Below, piece by piece: positions 11,126-23,163 of a stretch of 24,638 nucleotides of DNA (positions are counted from its first letter, which is position 1; each line of letters starts with the position of its first letter). Under the pieces are notes generated by a model. The model was not told the DNA's origin. It searched no databases and saw only the letters and a program-made list of their open reading frames with translations. The position numbers and the translations under genes are program-made. The stretch is from the UHGV virus genome UHGV-0052151; one strand, given 5' to 3'. This DNA comes from a virus.

Positions 11126-12159
11126 TGGGAAAGAGTAAGAAAAACCGCGCTGCGGCGACGAATCAGATCCAGCATAAAAACCAGACTTCAGCCGAAGCAT
11201 TCAGCTTCGGTGATCCCGTTCCAGTACTTGACCGCCGCGAACTGCTGGACTATGTGGAATGTGTTCAGACAGATCGCTGGTATGAGCCTCCCGTCAGCTT
11301 TGACGGACTGGCGCGCACCTTCCGCGCTGCCGTGCATCACAGTTCCCCGATTGCAGTAAAGTGCAACATTCTGACCAGTACCTATATCCCTCATCCGCTG
11401 CTCAGCCAACAGGCTTTTTCGCGTTTTGTGCAGGACTATCTGGTATTTGGTAACGCCTACCTGGAGAAACGCACGAACCGATTCGGTGAAGTTATCGCCC
11501 TTGAGCCTGCGCTGGCAAAATACACCCGACGCGGGTTAGACCTGGATACCTACTGGTTTGTGCAATACGGTATGACAACCCAGCCGTATCAGTTCACGAA
11601 AGGCAGCATTTTTCATCTGATGGAACCGGACATCAACCAGGAGATCTACGGCCTGCCCGGCTATCTTTCTGCCATTCCATCCGCCCTGCTCAACGAATCC
11701 GCCACGCTGTTCCGCCGTAAGTATTACATCAACGGTAGTCATGCAGGCTTCATCATGTACATGACCGACGCCGCGCAGAATCAGGAGGATGTGAACAACC
11801 TCCGCAACGCGATGAAAAGCGCCAAAGGTCCAGGCAACTTCCGCAATCTGTTTATGTACTCGCCTAACGGCAAAAAGGACGGACTTCAGATTATCCCGTT
11901 GTCAGAAGTCGCAGCGAAGGATGAGTTTCTGAATATCAAGAACGTGAGCCGCGATGACATGATGGCAGCACACCGAGTGCCGCCGCAAATGATGGGGATT
12001 ATGCCTAATAATGTCGGGGGGTTTGGGGATGTGGAGAAAGCCAGCCGCGTCTTTGTTCGCAATGAGTTGATACCTCTGCAGAAGCGCCTTCAGGAATTGA
12101 ACGACTGGCTTGGAGAAGAAGTCATGCGTTTTGAAGATTATAATTTAGGTATTGAATGA
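11122..12159 (+). CDS. Q: Portal (capsid vertex) protein
   Basis: 345 aa (P2 gpQ about 344 as I recall); immediately after P. Confidence 0.9.
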   Translation: MMGKSKKNRAAATNQIQHKNQTSAEAFSFGDPVPVLDRRELLDYVECVQTDRWYEPPVSFDGLARTFRAAVHHSSPIAVKCNILTSTYIPHPLLSQQAFSRFVQDYLVFGNAYLEKRTNRFGEVIALEPALAKYTRRGLDLDTYWFVQYGMTTQPYQFTKGSIFHLMEPDINQEIYGLPGYLSAIPSALLNESATLFRRKYYINGSHAGFIMYMTDAAQNQEDVNNLRNAMKSAKGPGNFRNLFMYSPNGKKDGLQIIPLSEVAAKDEFLNIKNVSRDDMMAAHRVPPQMMGIMPNNVGGFGDVEKASRVFVRNELIPLQKRLQELNDWLGEEVMRFEDYNLGIE

Positions 12160-12164
12160 TATTT

Positions 12165-12195
12165 AAAAGCCTGTACAAACAGGCTTTTATTCTTT
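12165..12195. terminator. Bidirectional rho-independent terminator between convergent Q and cargo operon
   Basis: AAAAGCCTGT-acaa-ACAGGCTTTT hairpin with an A-run on one side and a T-run on the other, 6 nt after the Q stop. Confidence 0.6.
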
Positions 12196-12228
12196 AGTTT
12201 AAAATCACCAAGACATGAGCATTAAAAC

Positions 12229-12894
12229 TTAAAGATCCGGATCTACAGGCTCATGATATAGATTTACAGGGTAATGAATAACTTCATAATTCAGTTGAGT
12301 AACTGTGTGAACATGCTGGCTATAAAAAACCAATGGATTTTTTTGACAAGGAGTAATCGTTATAGATTTACAGGCATGAATTCTTGGTGCGAATTTATCT
12401 AAATGCGCCTTCCAGTTGCTCATCATTTCATTACATTTTCTATTACGAGTATAGATAATCAATCCACCACTTGCGCTGTCTACGGTCCCTGTACTATATC
12501 GCTCAGTGAGTTGAGCATACCCTTTAAATAAATAACTATATGAAGATGTATGTTTTTTGGCTTCGCCATGCCAAATATAATCCTTTAGTTTTATTGTAAT
12601 ATCACAATGTCCGCGCTGATTATTTTCATGATATGCTTCAATGCCCATATCTTTATTTTTGATATTGGCCAATAAAATTAAAGTAAGCTGATCTTCTGTT
12701 AAATCGAAGTTTAACTTATTTGAATTCTCTTCTATTTCCTTTACAGCAGAATCAAGTTCAATCCTGACAAATTGTTTGAAATTATCGTACGATTGAAGTG
12801 CAAATCTAACACGAGTAATAGAAGCATTAATACGCTGAAGAAAAATATCATTATCAATATCAGCCAAACTCATTGCTGCAGACATTTTTAACAT
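12229..12894 (-). CDS. Hypothetical protein, third gene of AT-rich three-gene operon; weak PD-(D/E)xK-like motif
   Basis: 221 aa; ATG at 12894 shares one base with the upstream stop (TGATG); AT-rich codons; segment GHCDITIKLKDYIWHGEAKK; no family recognised. Confidence 0.6.
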   Translation of the reverse strand: MLKMSAAMSLADIDNDIFLQRINASITRVRFALQSYDNFKQFVRIELDSAVKEIEENSNKLNFDLTEDQLTLILLANIKNKDMGIEAYHENNQRGHCDITIKLKDYIWHGEAKKHTSSYSYLFKGYAQLTERYSTGTVDSASGGLIIYTRNRKCNEMMSNWKAHLDKFAPRIHACKSITITPCQKNPLVFYSQHVHTVTQLNYEVIHYPVNLYHEPVDPDL

Positions 12895-13328
12895 CAGATA
12901 ATATCCTTTGATTTAGATTCATCTAATGTAAAAAAAGGAAATACGAATGACTTATAGTCATACATAAGCTCCCCTGTAAATGGGTTTGCTAAAGATTGAC
13001 TGATTTCCGCCTCAATAACTTCCTCTATTTCAAGTTCTACAGGGTCATGAAAATCATCAACGAACCAATAATTGAGTTTTAAAAAATCAACCTTTGGGCT
13101 ACAAAGAATTTGTATGGCCGGATAGATAACCTGCTCATACGTTTCTGGCTGTAAAACCTTATTATAACCACCAGCTATATTAAATAAATCCTTATAACTT
13201 AAAGCTATATTTGATGATTTTTTAGCCCTTGCCTCGATTTCATCGTACAAATAGCAAGCTAACGCCCCAATTTCAGGGCGTTCTGCACACATTTCTTTGA
13301 TGATCTTGGGCATATCACCATCCTTCAT
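12894..13328 (-). CDS. Hypothetical acidic protein, second gene of the operon
   Basis: Track ORF 12894-13340 (TTG); ATG at 13328 with GGAG 6 nt upstream preferred; acidic C-terminal half (EIEEVIEAEISQS...); no family recognised. Confidence 0.55.
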   Translation of the reverse strand: MKDGDMPKIIKEMCAERPEIGALACYLYDEIEARAKKSSNIALSYKDLFNIAGGYNKVLQPETYEQVIYPAIQILCSPKVDFLKLNYWFVDDFHDPVELEIEEVIEAEISQSLANPFTGELMYDYKSFVFPFFTLDESKSKDII

Positions 13329-13340
13329 TGCTGACTCCAA

Positions 13341-14447
13341 TTATAATATCAGCTTTGTGAGGGTTTCGAAATCATCTTTGGATATACATTTACTTAATAT
13401 AGCATAGTTAACAGGAGAGCAACTACTCCCTCCTAGATGCCTGCGGAGTGTTCCCGGAATGATAAGCTCTACGTTATCCGCTAATTGCAGTTTTGGATTA
13501 TTTCTATCAACTCTAATTCCAATACGATACAAACCAATACTGCCTACTGCTTTGATGCCTTCCTTATTAAACAAATCATCACGTAAGTCTTTAGTGGCCA
13601 CATTTTTCTTTTCTTTATGCGTAGTCCCCTCATTCGTCAAAAATGACAAATCAAAGACTTTATAGCTTAATTTTGAATAAGGCAATGAATTTTGTTTGAA
13701 AATTGGCTCAATTAACGGATAAAAATCTTTTTCCGATGATTTAAATTCATAACCGACATGATTATACAATTCACGAATAATGTTACTCTTTGCAAAAGTA
13801 ACATTATCACCAATAATATTACCATTAGTATCTACCAAAACATGAATTTTATTAGTAACAGAGTCTAATATACAGACATCAAAACATTGTCGCTTTTCTT
13901 TTCGCTTTGCAATAATTTCATCAAACTGCTTGTATTGCGCAAGTGCTGACGGGGGAATTTTTTCTCTTACAACTAATTCTCTGACAGATGAAAAAACAAG
14001 TATTGACTGGGTGTTTTGAATAGAATAATTAACAAGTTCAGGTTGATTTTTTACAGCATTTTGCAATTGGACATCATCAAGGATCGAATCAACCAATAAT
14101 GATGGTTGATTCATCAAATTCCATTGAAAACTAAATCTGTCATTTAGTGTTTTAATTACACTATTATCTACAGTCAAACTAAATATTGCTTTTTCACCAT
14201 AAACGACCTGACCAAAAATTAGGTCATTTACGTTTGCCATAATGCCATCAAACTTTTGCCTATCTTTACTTTTAAGATCAATGAGGCTTTCTAGTATTTT
14301 TTCGTTTGTTGCTTCACGCCCCCTACCTGTTGGCAGCCCTAAAGACGCAATAATTGGCCTTGCAACGTTCCATGTGAAACGTTCAGTTAAGGTCAAGATC
14401 GACTTTAACTCAGACTTAGAAAGCACTACTGGGACACTACCTGTCAT
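13341..14447 (-). CDS. Hypothetical protein, first gene of the operon
   Basis: Track ORF to 14456 (GTG); ATG at 14447 preceded by AGGTG; about 368 aa; no P-loop or other motif recognised. Confidence 0.6.
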   Translation of the reverse strand: MTGSVPVVLSKSELKSILTLTERFTWNVARPIIASLGLPTGRGREATNEKILESLIDLKSKDRQKFDGIMANVNDLIFGQVVYGEKAIFSLTVDNSVIKTLNDRFSFQWNLMNQPSLLVDSILDDVQLQNAVKNQPELVNYSIQNTQSILVFSSVRELVVREKIPPSALAQYKQFDEIIAKRKEKRQCFDVCILDSVTNKIHVLVDTNGNIIGDNVTFAKSNIIRELYNHVGYEFKSSEKDFYPLIEPIFKQNSLPYSKLSYKVFDLSFLTNEGTTHKEKKNVATKDLRDDLFNKEGIKAVGSIGLYRIGIRVDRNNPKLQLADNVELIIPGTLRRHLGGSSCSPVNYAILSKCISKDDFETLTKLIL

Positions 14448-14597
14448 AACTTGCACCTAGTCATCCAAAAAGCAATAAGAATTTGCTCTTGTCTTAATTT
14501 ATCCTTCGATACCTAACAAATTACCTCAATGTTGAAAAAATTTGCAAGCCATTTGCTTCTAAAAAGCGACCTTACTCAGAGTGTTACAAAACTAAGC

Positions 14598-14633
14598 GAG
14601 CGCGCGCTCGTATCCCCGCCACGCCTGCCCGCT
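14598..14633. other. Candidate cos (cohesive-end) site
   Basis: Minus strand reads GGCGTGGCGGGGATACGAG; its first 13 nt match the P2/186 19-nt cohesive end as I recall it (GGCG[A/T]GGCGGGGAAAGCA[C/T]). It sits in a GC-rich island between Q and A, where cos is expected; a 14-bp perfect palindrome CGAGCGCGCGCTCG (14598-14611) is adjacent. Confidence 0.4.
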
Positions 14634-14947
14634 TTATGTAGTGGTTTTCATGCACCTGCATGTTCTACGTAAAAGCCCGCTAGTTCTGGCGAGCCTTAGC
14701 AAAAACGATCCTTAAACGATCATGCGATTTCATGCAGCATAGTCATGCACTGTCTAAGAGAAGTGAAAGTCCGTATCTGAATGACCACTTGAAAAACGAA
14801 ACATACAGACTTACAAAGATGAAGCTCTACTGTGAGCGAGGAACATACATAGTTGCTCTGTAATAGCCAAATTTTAAGCAGGAAATCTCTTTTTTATGAC
14901 AAAACTATAAAGAAAAACAGACCGTTTCATCGCTCGATGAAAATATA

Positions 14948-16525
14948 CTACAATACTTTTCTCTCGATGGTATTTTTAATAGTCAACATATCTTTAGGAA
15001 TACTTTTTTTCCCCTCTATACGTATGGTAAACACAAAAAGAATAACGGCTGATCTCACAATTTTCATGAGTTGTAAGAGCTGTTTCTCAAACTTTTCTTT
15101 CTCAATAAACCTCACCTCATCAAAAAACCCATAAGAATTATATAAATCAACTAACATGTCTTTCTCGTGAATAACTAACAGTTTATGTTCTAAATCATTC
15201 CTCCATTCTTTAAAAAAAGCAAGCTCACCATTTTTATCATTCAAATCCATAGCAATACTAAACAAACCCAGCAATCCTTTATTATTTATTTTGTTTATTT
15301 TAAGCTTTCTTTTTTCATCACTAATCCGCCAGAAGTTATGAAAGTATATATGTCCTCTATCTGGTTTTAAATCAAATAATTGACACAGAGCAACTGCTAT
15401 TTTATCCAAGATACCAAAGCAAGCTCTAAATGCAACCCTTAACTTCTCAACATTTTCATACAATATTTCTCCATTATACAATTCAGAATAACATACCTCC
15501 GAATCCTCATCAAAAAACTCACTATCAACCTTATATTCAAAAAACATTTTTCGTGCTAAGGAATACTCAGCTTTAAGTCTATTTAACACCATTTCCATTG
15601 GCACTATAAAATCACCAAACACACCTTCCTCGGTGGTAGCAATAGTTATATTATCTTTAGATGACGCATAACAATTGCAATATAGCGAATGATCAGACAA
15701 CATTAGATTATTATCTATACAAAACCTCTGGTAGTTTGATAAAGTATCATACTCCTCCTGCGTGAGCCTTTCATCTGTACTTATATCCTCTATGCCATAT
15801 ACACATGATTCACTCAATATACTTTCGTTGTACTTTATTTTTCTTTGAAGAGCAACCTTCCATGAAGGAAAACATTTCCCTGACTTTATTGCACACTCAT
15901 AACCTCGAATAACTTCTTTAATCATTTTATATGTATATGTTGTAGATAATTCATTAAGCAATTCTAATGCCTCAGATCTGTTTACCCACGCCTGAGGAAT
16001 TGAGTTATCAATAGATATTGCTTGTTCATAATAATCCATTGATTCAGATATACGATATTGTTTTTTTAATACATTAGCTAGATTAACTATTAAATCAGGG
16101 GGCACCCATCCATCTTCTTGTGAAAGTTTAAACGCTTTCCAGTAATTATTTTTTACATCATTCAGCTTAATGAAACTATCAATATCTGCATTGTCATTAG
16201 GATTAAAATCAAGAACTGCGCTCATTCCATTTGCCAAGTTATAGTAATATAAGGATTCTTTCATTATAGTCAGAAATTCATTTTTATTGTTTATAAAGAT
16301 ATTTAAGCCTTCCTCTGCTATATTTTTTACATTACTAAAACTTCCGATATCAATAAGATTTCCGGCCAAATTAGATAATATAATTATTCTATTTTCTTTG
16401 ATTGTATTTATCTCATCGATACCGTTAAGAATATCCTTTACATTTTTATAGGCAGAATCAAATGAACCTGCATTAATAAGATCATCTACGAACCCCATTT
16501 TTGAAACAACATAGTTGATATCCAT
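14948..16525 (-). CDS. Hypothetical 525-aa protein; helical/TPR-like N-terminal region, C-terminal Rx4H (HEPN-like) motif
   Basis: ATG at 16525 with AGAGGA 6 nt upstream; strongly AT-rich; occupies the old/tin position of P2; no Walker A, no reverse-transcriptase YxDD motif; WRNDLEHK near residue 442. Confidence 0.6.
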   Translation of the reverse strand: MDINYVVSKMGFVDDLINAGSFDSAYKNVKDILNGIDEINTIKENRIIILSNLAGNLIDIGSFSNVKNIAEEGLNIFINNKNEFLTIMKESLYYYNLANGMSAVLDFNPNDNADIDSFIKLNDVKNNYWKAFKLSQEDGWVPPDLIVNLANVLKKQYRISESMDYYEQAISIDNSIPQAWVNRSEALELLNELSTTYTYKMIKEVIRGYECAIKSGKCFPSWKVALQRKIKYNESILSESCVYGIEDISTDERLTQEEYDTLSNYQRFCIDNNLMLSDHSLYCNCYASSKDNITIATTEEGVFGDFIVPMEMVLNRLKAEYSLARKMFFEYKVDSEFFDEDSEVCYSELYNGEILYENVEKLRVAFRACFGILDKIAVALCQLFDLKPDRGHIYFHNFWRISDEKRKLKINKINNKGLLGLFSIAMDLNDKNGELAFFKEWRNDLEHKLLVIHEKDMLVDLYNSYGFFDEVRFIEKEKFEKQLLQLMKIVRSAVILFVFTIRIEGKKSIPKDMLTIKNTIERKVL

Positions 16526-16812
16526 TCAATCCTCTTTAAACTAAGCTAATAATACCAATCATTATATGGATGAGATCAATATAGAACATGCCATCTCCGG
16601 CAAAAATCGTACTACATCAGACCAGTGCCCTTCAAATAATATAAATTGAACTTAGATACTTCTGCTTCAACCAGTGTGTTAAATCCATCGCTTGAACTCA
16701 GAACAAAAAGCGGACGATCACTTATCAAAATGGCCGTCCACCTAACGCCTCGTTTCACTCGTTGCCCAAAATAGTCCCCCATCAGAATGAATCCTCTTGG
16801 GGGCAACGTTTC

Positions 16813-17046
16813 TTAATGCAGCCAGCTGTCGTCTTCCCACACCTTCTGCATAATTTTCATCACTTGCTTCCTTTCTTCGTCCAGTTGCAGTCCGGTCAGT
16901 TCCACACCGTTAGAGCTACCTTTGCGAATGCGAATTACCGTTTTGGGATACAGGGGGCGCAGATTGCGGTAAAGCTCGGATTCAAGGGCGTCCAGGGTAG
17001 ACTGGCTAATCTTCTGCTCTTTATCGATCATTATTTCAATGCGCAT
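16813..17046 (-). CDS. DinI-like SOS protein (C-terminal-Tum-like)
   Basis: Track ORF 16813-17118; ATG at 17046 with GAGGTG upstream gives MRIEIMIDKEQKISQSTLDALESELYRNL...QKVWEDDSWLH, resembling the DinI N- and C-terminal patterns. Confidence 0.7.
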   Translation of the reverse strand: MRIEIMIDKEQKISQSTLDALESELYRNLRPLYPKTVIRIRKGSSNGVELTGLQLDEERKQVMKIMQKVWEDDSWLH

Positions 17047-17056
17047 AAAAGTCACC

Positions 17057-17245
17057 TCAGCTGATGACATCCATTGAGCGGTTGTATTCGTGGGTTCTGA
17101 TTTTTGCCATGAGTTCATCTGTCAGTTCAGAAACCCACTGCAGGGCCAGCCCCTTCTCTTCATCACTACACTCACTAGCCGCTACAAGCTTAAGAAAAAA
17201 ATCAATGCGCTGGAGCTTCAAAGACTCCAAAAAATAGTCCTGCAT
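17057..17245 (-). CDS. Small SOS-operon protein (possible antirepressor, 186 Tum N-terminal-like by position)
   Basis: ATG at 17245 with AGGAGG 6 nt upstream; 62 aa; LexA box 44 nt upstream; stop 10 nt before the DinI-like start. Confidence 0.45.
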   Translation of the reverse strand: MQDYFLESLKLQRIDFFLKLVAASECSDEEKGLALQWVSELTDELMAKIRTHEYNRSMDVIS

Positions 17246-17287
17246 CTTTCCTCCTATGACACCACAAGCAATACTGTATGCATAACC

Positions 17288-17307
17288 ACTGTTTATATTT
17301 ACAGTAT
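17288..17307. promoter_or_regulatory. LexA operator (SOS box)
   Basis: ACTGTTTATATTTACAGTAT: perfect CTGT-N8-ACAG with AT-rich centre, immediately upstream of the small ORF/DinI-like operon; a TTTACA -35-like hexamer lies just upstream on the minus strand. Confidence 0.7.
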
Positions 17308-17398
17308 ATAATAATCTTACTGATGTAAAACGTTTTTTTACGTTCATCAGCCTGATATACCTGGTATTATTAAGAGCACGAATTGTTAACCCGCGTAA

Positions 17399-22468: not shown

Positions 22469-22593
22469 GATGCAACATTCCTCGTTTAATGATGATTAAT
22501 CAGGACGAATACGGATCGTTTGTATTTTGTGAACACCATAAACATACGATCGCACGATGAAATCGTCAAGATAAAAGTTCACTTGGAGTGACC
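22469..22593. promoter_or_regulatory. Lysis-lysogeny switch region (face-to-face pR/pL, CI operators expected)
   Basis: 125-bp region between divergent apl and cI; direct repeats ATACGGATCG (22509-22518) and ATACGATCG (22544-22552), each with a GATC, and inverted repeat ACGAT-GAA-ATCGT (22554-22566). Confidence 0.4.
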
Positions 22594-23163
22594 ATGAATT
22601 TGGAGAAAGGCGGACGAGGCGCTATAGAGCGCATGGTAGAAGCTTATGGATTCAAAACTCGACAGGCGTTGTGCGATCATTTAGGAATCTCTAAAAGTAC
22701 ACTCGCTACACGCTACATGCGTGACTCATTCCCAGCAGAATGGGTAATCCAGTGCGCCCTTGAAACGGGCACCTCGCTTAATTGGCTCACAACTGGACAT
22801 GGTTCAAAGCAAACTTCAGGTAATACAAATACGATGGAAGTTGCTAAATATGTATTATCTGATGGTGCCTTGCGTGAAGACGGTTTTTATATTTTTGATA
22901 AGGGATTTCTACCCTCTACGTTTAAAAAACCTTTTGTCATCACAGATAACAATTCTGAATTTATTTGTGATAAAGAATTTGATGATATACGTGATGGTAA
23001 ATGGGTAATAAGTATTGATGGCGAAATAACAATCCGCGACATTACTCGTTTACCCGGTGGAAGAATCTTCGTTGAAGGTGGAAACAGAGCCTTCGAGTGC
23101 AAGATAGAAGATGTTGAAATAATTGGAAAAATTATAAGTTTAACAATTAAGTACGTTAGGTAA
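22594..23163 (+). CDS. cI: CI immunity repressor (186 type)
   Basis: ATG at 22594 with GGAG upstream; 189 aa; segments VEAYGF, CALETGTSLNWLTTGHG and ITIRDITRLPGGRIFVEGG resemble 186 CI as I recall it. Confidence 0.85.
   Translation: MNLEKGGRGAIERMVEAYGFKTRQALCDHLGISKSTLATRYMRDSFPAEWVIQCALETGTSLNWLTTGHGSKQTSGNTNTMEVAKYVLSDGALREDGFYIFDKGFLPSTFKKPFVITDNNSEFICDKEFDDIRDGKWVISIDGEITIRDITRLPGGRIFVEGGNRAFECKIEDVEIIGKIISLTIKYVR

Follow-up and report, generated by a model that had tools for sequence, protein, structure and literature searches.

A Two-Cistron tumA-tumB Arrangement in the Putative SOS Induction Operon of a P2-Family Prophage of Escherichia coli

Do two small genes behind a LexA box form the SOS induction operon of a prophage, with the function of the phage 186 protein Tum divided between separate cistrons, or are they what is left of a tum gene broken by a frameshift? 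The question was raised by a stretch of 24,638 nucleotides from virus genome UHGV-0052151 (hereafter the window, meaning the whole stretch that was analyzed), which is 100% identical to the E. coli chromosome NZ_OY754398.1. Our analyses suggested, with a probability of roughly 80%, that the element serves a P2-family prophage of Fels-2/186 type, resident in an E. coli chromosome, as its SOS induction operon, in a two-cistron tumA-tumB form. Control by LexA, inactivation of the repressor CI by the 62-aa protein and modulation of RecA by the DinI-like protein are carried over from phages 186 and PSP3, and are accordingly worded below as predicted functions.

Operon Layout and Identity of the Two Products

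The operon lies on the minus strand, and the 804-aa ORF directly upstream of it encodes the P2-type replication protein gpA (Table 1). A previous sequence-only reading had described a 62-aa ORF followed, after a 10-nt gap and in another frame, by a DinI-like 77-aa ORF with its own RBS, and all of these elements were recovered at the same positions. The near-consensus LexA box overlapping the promoter was likewise confirmed, as a box lying on the -10 hexamer; its earlier coordinates (17288..17307) had been quoted for the plus strand. Two details were absent from that reading, namely a second, overlapping box at 17289..17274 and a 96-aa reading of the small ORF from the ATG at 17347. The 96-aa version, chosen by many gene callers, was rejected as a gene-caller artefact: because its start precedes the promoter and the match to the PHROG family profile begins at residue 35, the real product is the 62-aa protein. 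For the second cistron, an automatic call had placed the start at a GTG one nt past the tumA stop, both in the window and in a near-identical prophage (L024); this start was dropped in favor of the ATG at +10, whose 77-aa product is kept elsewhere.

Table 1. Coordinates of the operon elements and of the repressor gene in the window.
Feature	Coordinates	Strand	Remarks
-35 hexamer TTTACA	17324..17329	(-)	5/6 vs TTGACA; p95-like SOS promoter
Promoter spacer, 17 nt	between -35 (17329-17324) and -10 (17306-17301)	(-)	
-10 hexamer TACTGT	17301..17306	(-)	inside left half of LexA box 1; sequence read directly
LexA (SOS) box 1, TACTGTAAATATAAACAGTG	17287..17306	(-)	17/20 to consensus
LexA-type box 2, GTGGTTATGCATACAG	17274..17289	(-)	one-base overlap with box 1
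RBS AGGAGG of the 62-aa ORF	17250..17255	(-)	sequence read directly; kept in related loci
tumA-like gene, 62 aa, putative CI antirepressor	17057..17245 including stop	(-)	ATG 17245, TGA 17059-17057
Second RBS, GAGGTG	17058..17053	(-)	overlaps stop codon of the 62-aa ORF
Intercistronic gap, 10 nt	between the 62-aa and 77-aa ORFs	(-)	with frame change
Weak hairpin over tumA stop codon and dinI RBS	17051..17068	(-)	not significant
tumB / dinI-like gene, 77 aa	16813..17046 including stop	(-)	ATG 17046, TAA 16815-16813; frame differs from 62-aa ORF
Terminator-like hairpin and U-run 3' of dinI	16765..16803	(-)	candidate; t95a analogy
186-type CI immunity repressor, 191 aa	22588..23163	(+)	inferred target of the 62-aa protein

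The homology of the 62-aa ORF to the N-terminus of 186 Tum and to PSP3 TumA is supported by profile comparisons. Pairwise BLASTP of the ORF against 186 Tum detected no similarity, and the relationship is visible at the profile level only. The ORF matched phrog_698 with E = 3.6e-38, a family that was also matched by the 186 Tum N-terminus (E = 5.9e-6); it further matched phrog_8554 (2.4e-8) and phrog_1993 (2.2e-3), the latter being the family of PSP3 TumA, and both of these were matched by the 186 Tum N-terminus as well. In a direct hhalign comparison of the 62-aa ORF with the Tum N-terminus/TumA, residues 6-42 of both aligned without gaps at 94.1% probability and E = 1.3e-7. The 62-aa ORF and the Tum N-terminal module share the motif C26-x6-[IL]-A-L-x-[LW]-[IV]-[AS]-E-[IL], and their families appear by eye to be bridged by the 'tum protein' of Yersinia phage YenM_06.16-2. 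There was no Pfam match and no meaningful NCBIfam match for the 62-aa ORF. The sequence-only reading had proposed an alignment with 186 tum and had regarded a lack of similarity to the Tum N-terminus as counting against its case; such similarity was found by profile.

An AlphaFold2 model of the 62-aa protein (pLDDT 90.8) predicted a two-helix hairpin with helices at residues 2-23 and 28-61, so that the invariant Cys26 would fall into the turn between them. When the PDB was searched with this model by Foldseek, only generic helical hairpins were returned, none of them at E <= 0.001. In the databases, the small ORF is labeled as 'hypothetical protein' in RefSeq and as 'levan regulatory protein' in some records.

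The 77-aa ORF, as judged from its sequence, is a phage DinI-like paralogue and not the host dinI. The Pfam DinI model (PF06183) was matched with E = 6.6e-23 and 81.3 bits, above its cutoff of 24.2, and the match, over residues 14-76, covered the whole 63-position model; the structure of E. coli DinI, 1GHH, was matched with E = 2.7e-6. The NCBIfam equivalog for chromosomal DinI, PRK10597, scored 42.7 bits, below its cutoff of 111. The C-terminal W-E-D-D-S-W of the ORF aligned with W-E-S-A-D-D-W of DinI, and the protein was 100% identical to Fels-2 STM2726.1 and 78% identical to PSP3 TumB. The description of 186 Tum in the sequence-only reading, with about 146 aa and a DinI-like C-terminal half, proved accurate: Tum has 146 aa, of which residues 71-145 share 41% identity with the 77-aa ORF (E = 3e-24). 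The match of the DinI half to this part of Tum, the profile homology of the 62-aa ORF and the p95-like promoter together support the proposal that the Tum function is split between two ORFs here. As for full-length Tum, PHROG 189 carries it under the label 'DinI'.

Two RNA hairpins were considered as further elements of the operon. The fold at the junction of the two cistrons had z = -1.16, and 22 of 200 shuffled sequences folded equally well; a role in the translational coupling of tumA and dinI is possible. Past dinI, a CCCCCA/UGGGGG stem was present in the minimum free energy structure and was not better than shuffles (z = -0.37); by analogy, it is possibly the counterpart of the partial terminator t95a of 186.

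Promoter and Double LexA-Type Operator

The promoter was assigned through analogy with p95 of 186, whose annotated layout it matches; the first six bases of LexA box 1 constitute the -10 hexamer. Of 37 related loci, 19 have TTTACA at the 17-nt spacing. A generic sigma-70 promoter scan did not call this promoter, because its -10 hexamer matches at just 3 of 6 positions.

The operator appears to be double. The 16-mer of box 1, CTGTAAATATAAACAG, is followed by the second box (17289-17274), and one base is common to both, so that two 16-bp boxes of the form xTG-N10-CAG with one shared base lie at the promoter. The left half of box 2 reads GTG and not CTG, which is likewise the case in colicin operators. 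The operators of colicin N and cloacin, located approximately 43 nt upstream of their genes, are identical to the operator here at 30 of 35 positions by hand count, and the geometry of two 16-bp boxes sharing one base is common to them, whereas a bacteriocin is driven there and a prophage antirepressor would be driven here. In colicin genes, the dual boxes are reported to be bound by two LexA dimers and to give very tight repression (PMC2994835). By this analogy, the operator here would be a colicin-type double LexA site and would repress tighter than the single site of 186.

Of 37 loci in the phrog_698-type subfamily, 20, Fels-2 included, carry such a dual box, with a variable spacer sequence; it was not found in 186-, PSP3-, ESSI2- and YenM-type promoters, and 186 and PSP3 carry one box. 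The searchable literature, which did not comprise Bunny 2002, held no mention of a dual operator at the tumA promoter.

Repressor, Mechanism, and Alternative Readings

The CI repressor encoded in the window is of 186 type and not lambda-like; it is 32% identical to 186 CI and has the same architecture of an N-terminal HTH and a C-terminal domain. Comparison with related phages showed that TumA is far more conserved than CI. In phages whose TumA is 100% identical to the one here, among them Cartapus and Klebsiella 4LV2017-type phages, CI is only 41-54% identical to that of the window, with 69-79% identity in the HTH domain (residues 8-72) and 23-40% in the remainder; for 186 and PSP3, identity in the CI N-terminal domain is 41-49%. 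Across the species loci, the N-terminal domain was 57-95% identical and the remainder 25-42%, with three exceptions: the near-identical prophage L024 (88% and 92%, respectively), L058 (50% for the N-terminal domain, over a shorter alignment) and L044, in which a TumA of 84% identity is paired with a CI N-terminal domain of 38%. Six species loci gave no CI match, and in two of them (L032 and L043) CI lies outside the 7.5-kb flank. Within the subfamily, no quantitative covariation was detected between the identity of TumA and that of the CI N-terminal domain in this small sample, which is not phylogenetically independent, and the association stands at the family level alone.

Based on these features and on what is reported for 186, the following course of events can be proposed. 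In the undamaged cell, LexA would occupy the operator overlapping the -10 hexamer and keep the operon silent. Upon DNA damage, RecA-stimulated self-cleavage of LexA would free the promoter, and the 62-aa helical-hairpin protein would be made and bind the non-cleavable 186-type CI, keeping it from its operators; with CI inactivated, the lytic promoter would fire and the prophage would be induced. For 186, papers citing Shearwin 1998 state that Tum binds CI, blocks operator binding and is enough for induction. The 77-aa DinI-like protein from the same transcript probably targets RecA filaments, tuning the SOS signal, and would be dispensable for antirepression.

The reading of an SOS induction operon with two functional cistrons has to be weighed against other accounts of the locus. 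A LexA-box match might be fortuitous, with the operon expressed constitutively or on a lytic transcript and without SOS control, and the failure of the generic scan to call a promoter would agree with this; so would the 16-bp core CTGT-N8-ACAG, whose single occurrence in the window is not significant alone (0.35 expected by chance, at least one in 29 of 100 shuffles). Against chance stand the 20-mer within 3 mismatches of TACTGTATATATATACAGTA, which was found once in the window and in 0 of 100 shuffles, the LexA box, which keeps its relative position in each of the 12 phage loci examined, and the stricter pattern TACTG-N10-CAG, which precedes tumA in 32 of 36 species loci. Position and sequence of the box are kept across divergent loci with differing flanks, the box coincides with the experimentally defined p95/LexA site of 186, and box 2 reproduces the colicin operator, so that we give a fortuitous match hardly any credence. 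Equally hard to credit is that the two ORFs are the decaying remains of a fused tum recently interrupted by a frameshift or nonsense mutation, an option that the sequence-only reading had set beside a natural two-gene arrangement. It is true that 62 and 77 aa combined approximate the 146 aa of 186 Tum, and that the in-frame split of PSP3, with 3 nt between its genes, resembles a simple stop codon. When 36 genomes at the species level, drawn from across Enterobacterales, were surveyed together with 11 annotated phage loci, however, both cistrons proved to be under strong purifying selection, with dN/dS of 0.067 for tumA (321 pairs) and 0.054 for dinI at dS of approximately 1. Among the 36 species loci, 29 had a small ORF of exactly 62 aa, and the intercistronic gap was 8, 9, 10, 11 or 12 nt, in all three relative frames, with the second cistron always having an RBS of its own and a conserved ATG. 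The gpA-tumA-dinI segment was matched in 1,125 of 5,426 complete E. coli genomes, about a fifth, and the two-gene arrangement extends to many genera. No fused form of the phrog_698-type subfamily was found among the 36 species loci, the 120 nearest clusters of proteins or a set of 86 representative clusters from a library of 1.84 billion proteins, and the 25-residue linker of 186 Tum has no counterpart here. The fused 146-aa Tum was confined to the 186 type (186, MHG75, EtG, Kp4882-2 and BIS20); in PSP3 and RCIP0057 the split is in frame and leaves a gap of 3 nt, only the TumA-like gene is present in ESSI2-type and YenM-type phages, and dinI was absent from 15 of the 36 species loci. Of the two options of the sequence-only reading, the natural arrangement thus stood and the frameshifted tum did not: on comparative sequence grounds, the arrangement here is an old, stable pair of separable modules and not a broken tum.

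A further alternative accepts the SOS control of the operon and denies that the 62-aa protein is a specific antirepressor of its own CI; the protein would have another role, such as that of a general modulator or an action on another protein, and induction would proceed via something else. The much stronger conservation of TumA than of CI, the lack of covariation between the two within the family and the mismatched pair in L044 would all be in line with such a role, as would the fact that antirepression is attributed to phrog_698-type members from other subfamilies, PSP3 TumA belonging to phrog_1993. On the other side, there is support for homology of the ORF with the Tum N-terminus and with TumA, the ORF has the position and regulation of 186 tum, and the CI HTH domain is 57-95% identical wherever the phrog_698 TumA type occurs, which offers a plausible common target. 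In addition, Fels-2 is named in the title of Bunny 2002 as the reason why Salmonella does not survive a lexA null mutation, and such lethality fits a LexA-repressed inducer since Fels-2 carries this very operon. Taken together, we consider it unlikely that the 62-aa protein has such another role, and retain its reading as an antirepressor of the co-resident CI.

If the 62-aa protein does act on CI, the retention of the CI HTH domain beside a far more conserved TumA would fit, as a hypothesis, recognition of the DNA-binding domain and hence a broad specificity. It is tempting, though on present evidence rather doubtful, to suppose that the phrog_698-type TumA is a broad-spectrum antirepressor which acts via the conserved CI HTH domain and cross-induces heteroimmune P2-family prophages, and that the double LexA operator makes induction later, tighter and possibly bistable compared with 186 and PSP3.

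Comparison With Known Prophage Induction Operons

The split tumA-dinI arrangement in Fels-2-type phages is already known from publications of 2002 and 2011 and from the annotation of PSP3. Lemire 2011 (PMC3121763), citing Bunny, Liu and Roth 2002, states that tum is split in two in Fels-2 and PSP3 and that the upstream gene is the antirepressor, a role which for PSP3 is given there as a personal communication of E. Christie. Because of this statement and the PSP3 annotation, the finding was already present in the literature and in GenBank, and confirming a split tum here just corrects database labels. What the comparison of sequences appears to add is modest, namely the colicin-type dual operator and the pairing of identical TumA proteins with CI repressors sharing only the HTH domain. 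The dual operator and the asymmetry of conservation between TumA and CI provide modest, testable leads on induction thresholds and prophage crosstalk; and as the operon is very common, recognizing it as the SOS trigger is relevant to forecasts of which P2-family prophages can be induced by DNA-damaging antibiotics.

At the DNA level, the segment shares approximately 97.5% identity with Salmonella phage Fels-2; for many Peduoviridae of Klebsiella, Salmonella and E. coli the figure is 94-98%. In Fels-2, a prophage of Salmonella Typhimurium LT2 (NC_010463), STM2728 is 98.4% identical to the 62-aa ORF and STM2726.1 is 100% identical to the DinI-like protein, and the promoter, the dual LexA box, the 10-nt gap and the frame shift between the cistrons are all as here. 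The Fels-2 record describes STM2728 as hypothetical and STM2726.1 as a DinI family member, with a note pointing to 'TumB [phage PsP3]'. The two phages differ downstream, where Fels-2 has the orf97-sized gene STM2726 (243 aa) and an AT-rich island carrying a TPR + HEPN_LA2681 gene begins in the window. Their CI repressors diverge strongly: in RE2010, a Felsduovirus relative of Fels-2, CI shows 40.8% identity to that of the window.

PSP3 shares a two-cistron operon with a LexA box after gene A, and its record (NC_005340) annotates tumA as 'similar to 5' end 186 tum; UV induction of prophage' and tumB as 'similar to dinI and 3' end of 186 tum'. Its TumA, of phrog_1993, is nearer to the 186 Tum N-terminus than is the phrog_698-type ORF here, and its in-frame split, 3-nt gap and single LexA box contrast with the 10-nt gap, frame change and dual box of the window.

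In 186, the position after gene A, the -10 hexamer TACTGT within the LexA box and the order of an N-terminal antirepressor and a C-terminal DinI module are the same as here, whereas a single polypeptide there comprises both modules, with approximately 25 residues of linker between them, and its gene lies behind a single LexA box and is followed by orf97. A fused Tum of this type was not found in the window, where a stop codon, the 10-nt gap and the frame change intervene between the modules. Over the gapless alignment, the 186 Tum N-terminal module shares about 21% identity with the 62-aa ORF (8 of 38 positions, counted by hand). Annotated in the 186 record are p95 with its LexA site and Tum, the latter with the remark 'inhibits CI DNA binding'. 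The record also lists an internal GTG start that yields a separate 76-aa DinI-like product, which 'modulates SOS induction' and is the counterpart of the second cistron in the window.

[quoted passage not shown] These prophages are lambdoid, dinI comes first in the reversed order, and the families of antirepressor and repressor are unrelated to those here; deletion of dinI was without significant effect on their induction in the same study.

The tumA operator and the start of the small ORF

The operator of tumA, which encodes the putative CI antirepressor TumA, was compared with known SOS boxes, and by its sequence it belongs to the colicin-type dual overlapping kind. By our own count, 30 of 35 positions were identical to the colicin N and cloacin operators, and the dual box was kept at 20 of the 37 loci of the subfamily to which the window's TumA belongs. 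In contrast, phages 186 and PSP3 carry a single SOS box.

The position of this promoter region also bears on the length of the gene product. Many database entries (P0005, P0007, P0008 and others) give 84-101 aa for the small ORF, for example a 96-aa version starting at ATG 17347 (region 17245-17347, minus strand). These long starts lie upstream of both the -35 element and the LexA box and are thus artefacts of gene calling. The product that is conserved has 62 aa. In addition, RefSeq names the small ORF "hypothetical protein", and a number of UniRef and GenBank entries give it as "levan regulatory protein". PHROG 189 ("RecA filament binding protein DinI") is a 151-position profile that takes in the N-terminus of the Tum antirepressor, with the result that full-length Tum goes under the name DinI. 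The scope of this profile and the labels of the small ORF are annotation problems.

Features of the window considered here
Feature	Coordinates	Strand	Evidence or remark
tumA operator, dual overlapping SOS box	17274-17306	minus	CTGTAAATATAAACAG + GTGGTTATGCATACAG, one G in common
Six-pair hairpin with tumA stop codon and part of dinI RBS inside	17051-17068	minus	fold
TPR + LA2681-type HEPN protein, 525 aa	14948-16525	minus	Pfam E = 1.8e-38
AT-rich island, between dinI and late genes	about 12000-16500		28-40% GC
371-aa ORF in island	13341-14456	minus	
148-aa ORF in island	12894-13340	minus	
221-aa ORF in island	12229-12894	minus	Rep3_C, sub-threshold
CI repressor (compared with TumA, 17057-17245, minus)	22588-23163	+	

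The DinI partner and the CI repressor

Of the 36 species genomes, 15 had a solitary LexA-controlled tumA-like gene that lacked any dinI within 1.5 kb (species loci listed as L029, L033, L042, L046-L055 and L057-L059), so the module can do without its DinI partner. In the window, translation of dinI could be coupled to that of tumA through the junction hairpin, which folded no better than shuffled sequence (z = -1.16).

Among 50,697 phage records there was no close relative of the window's CI (best 53.5%), and many of these records carried a 100% identical 62-aa TumA. Among phages with this TumA, CI conservation was limited to the HTH N-terminal domain (57-95% identical), the remainder being 23-42% identical. 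Some 186-type CI repressors, of about 287 aa, had two tandem copies of this domain (L013, L014 and L021, from Kp4871-2, ST340-VIM1phi10.2 and PSP3, respectively).

The AT-rich island and the HEPN gene

The island, at 28-40% GC against 50-54% for the phage core, contains the HEPN gene and three minus-strand ORFs, and was probably gained by horizontal transfer as a moron or defence hotspot. None of the three ORFs had a Pfam or PADLOC match above threshold, the sub-threshold Rep3_C being their sole match. The HEPN product, named "LA2681 family HEPN domain-containing protein" in RefSeq, may be defence or abortive-infection cargo. Its gene lies 287 nt downstream of the SOS operon on the same strand, and SOS read-through transcription could reach it. 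The combination of SOS operon and HEPN gene was common to only 11 complete E. coli genomes; the HEPN gene occupies the place of orf97 in 186 and of STM2726 in Fels-2.
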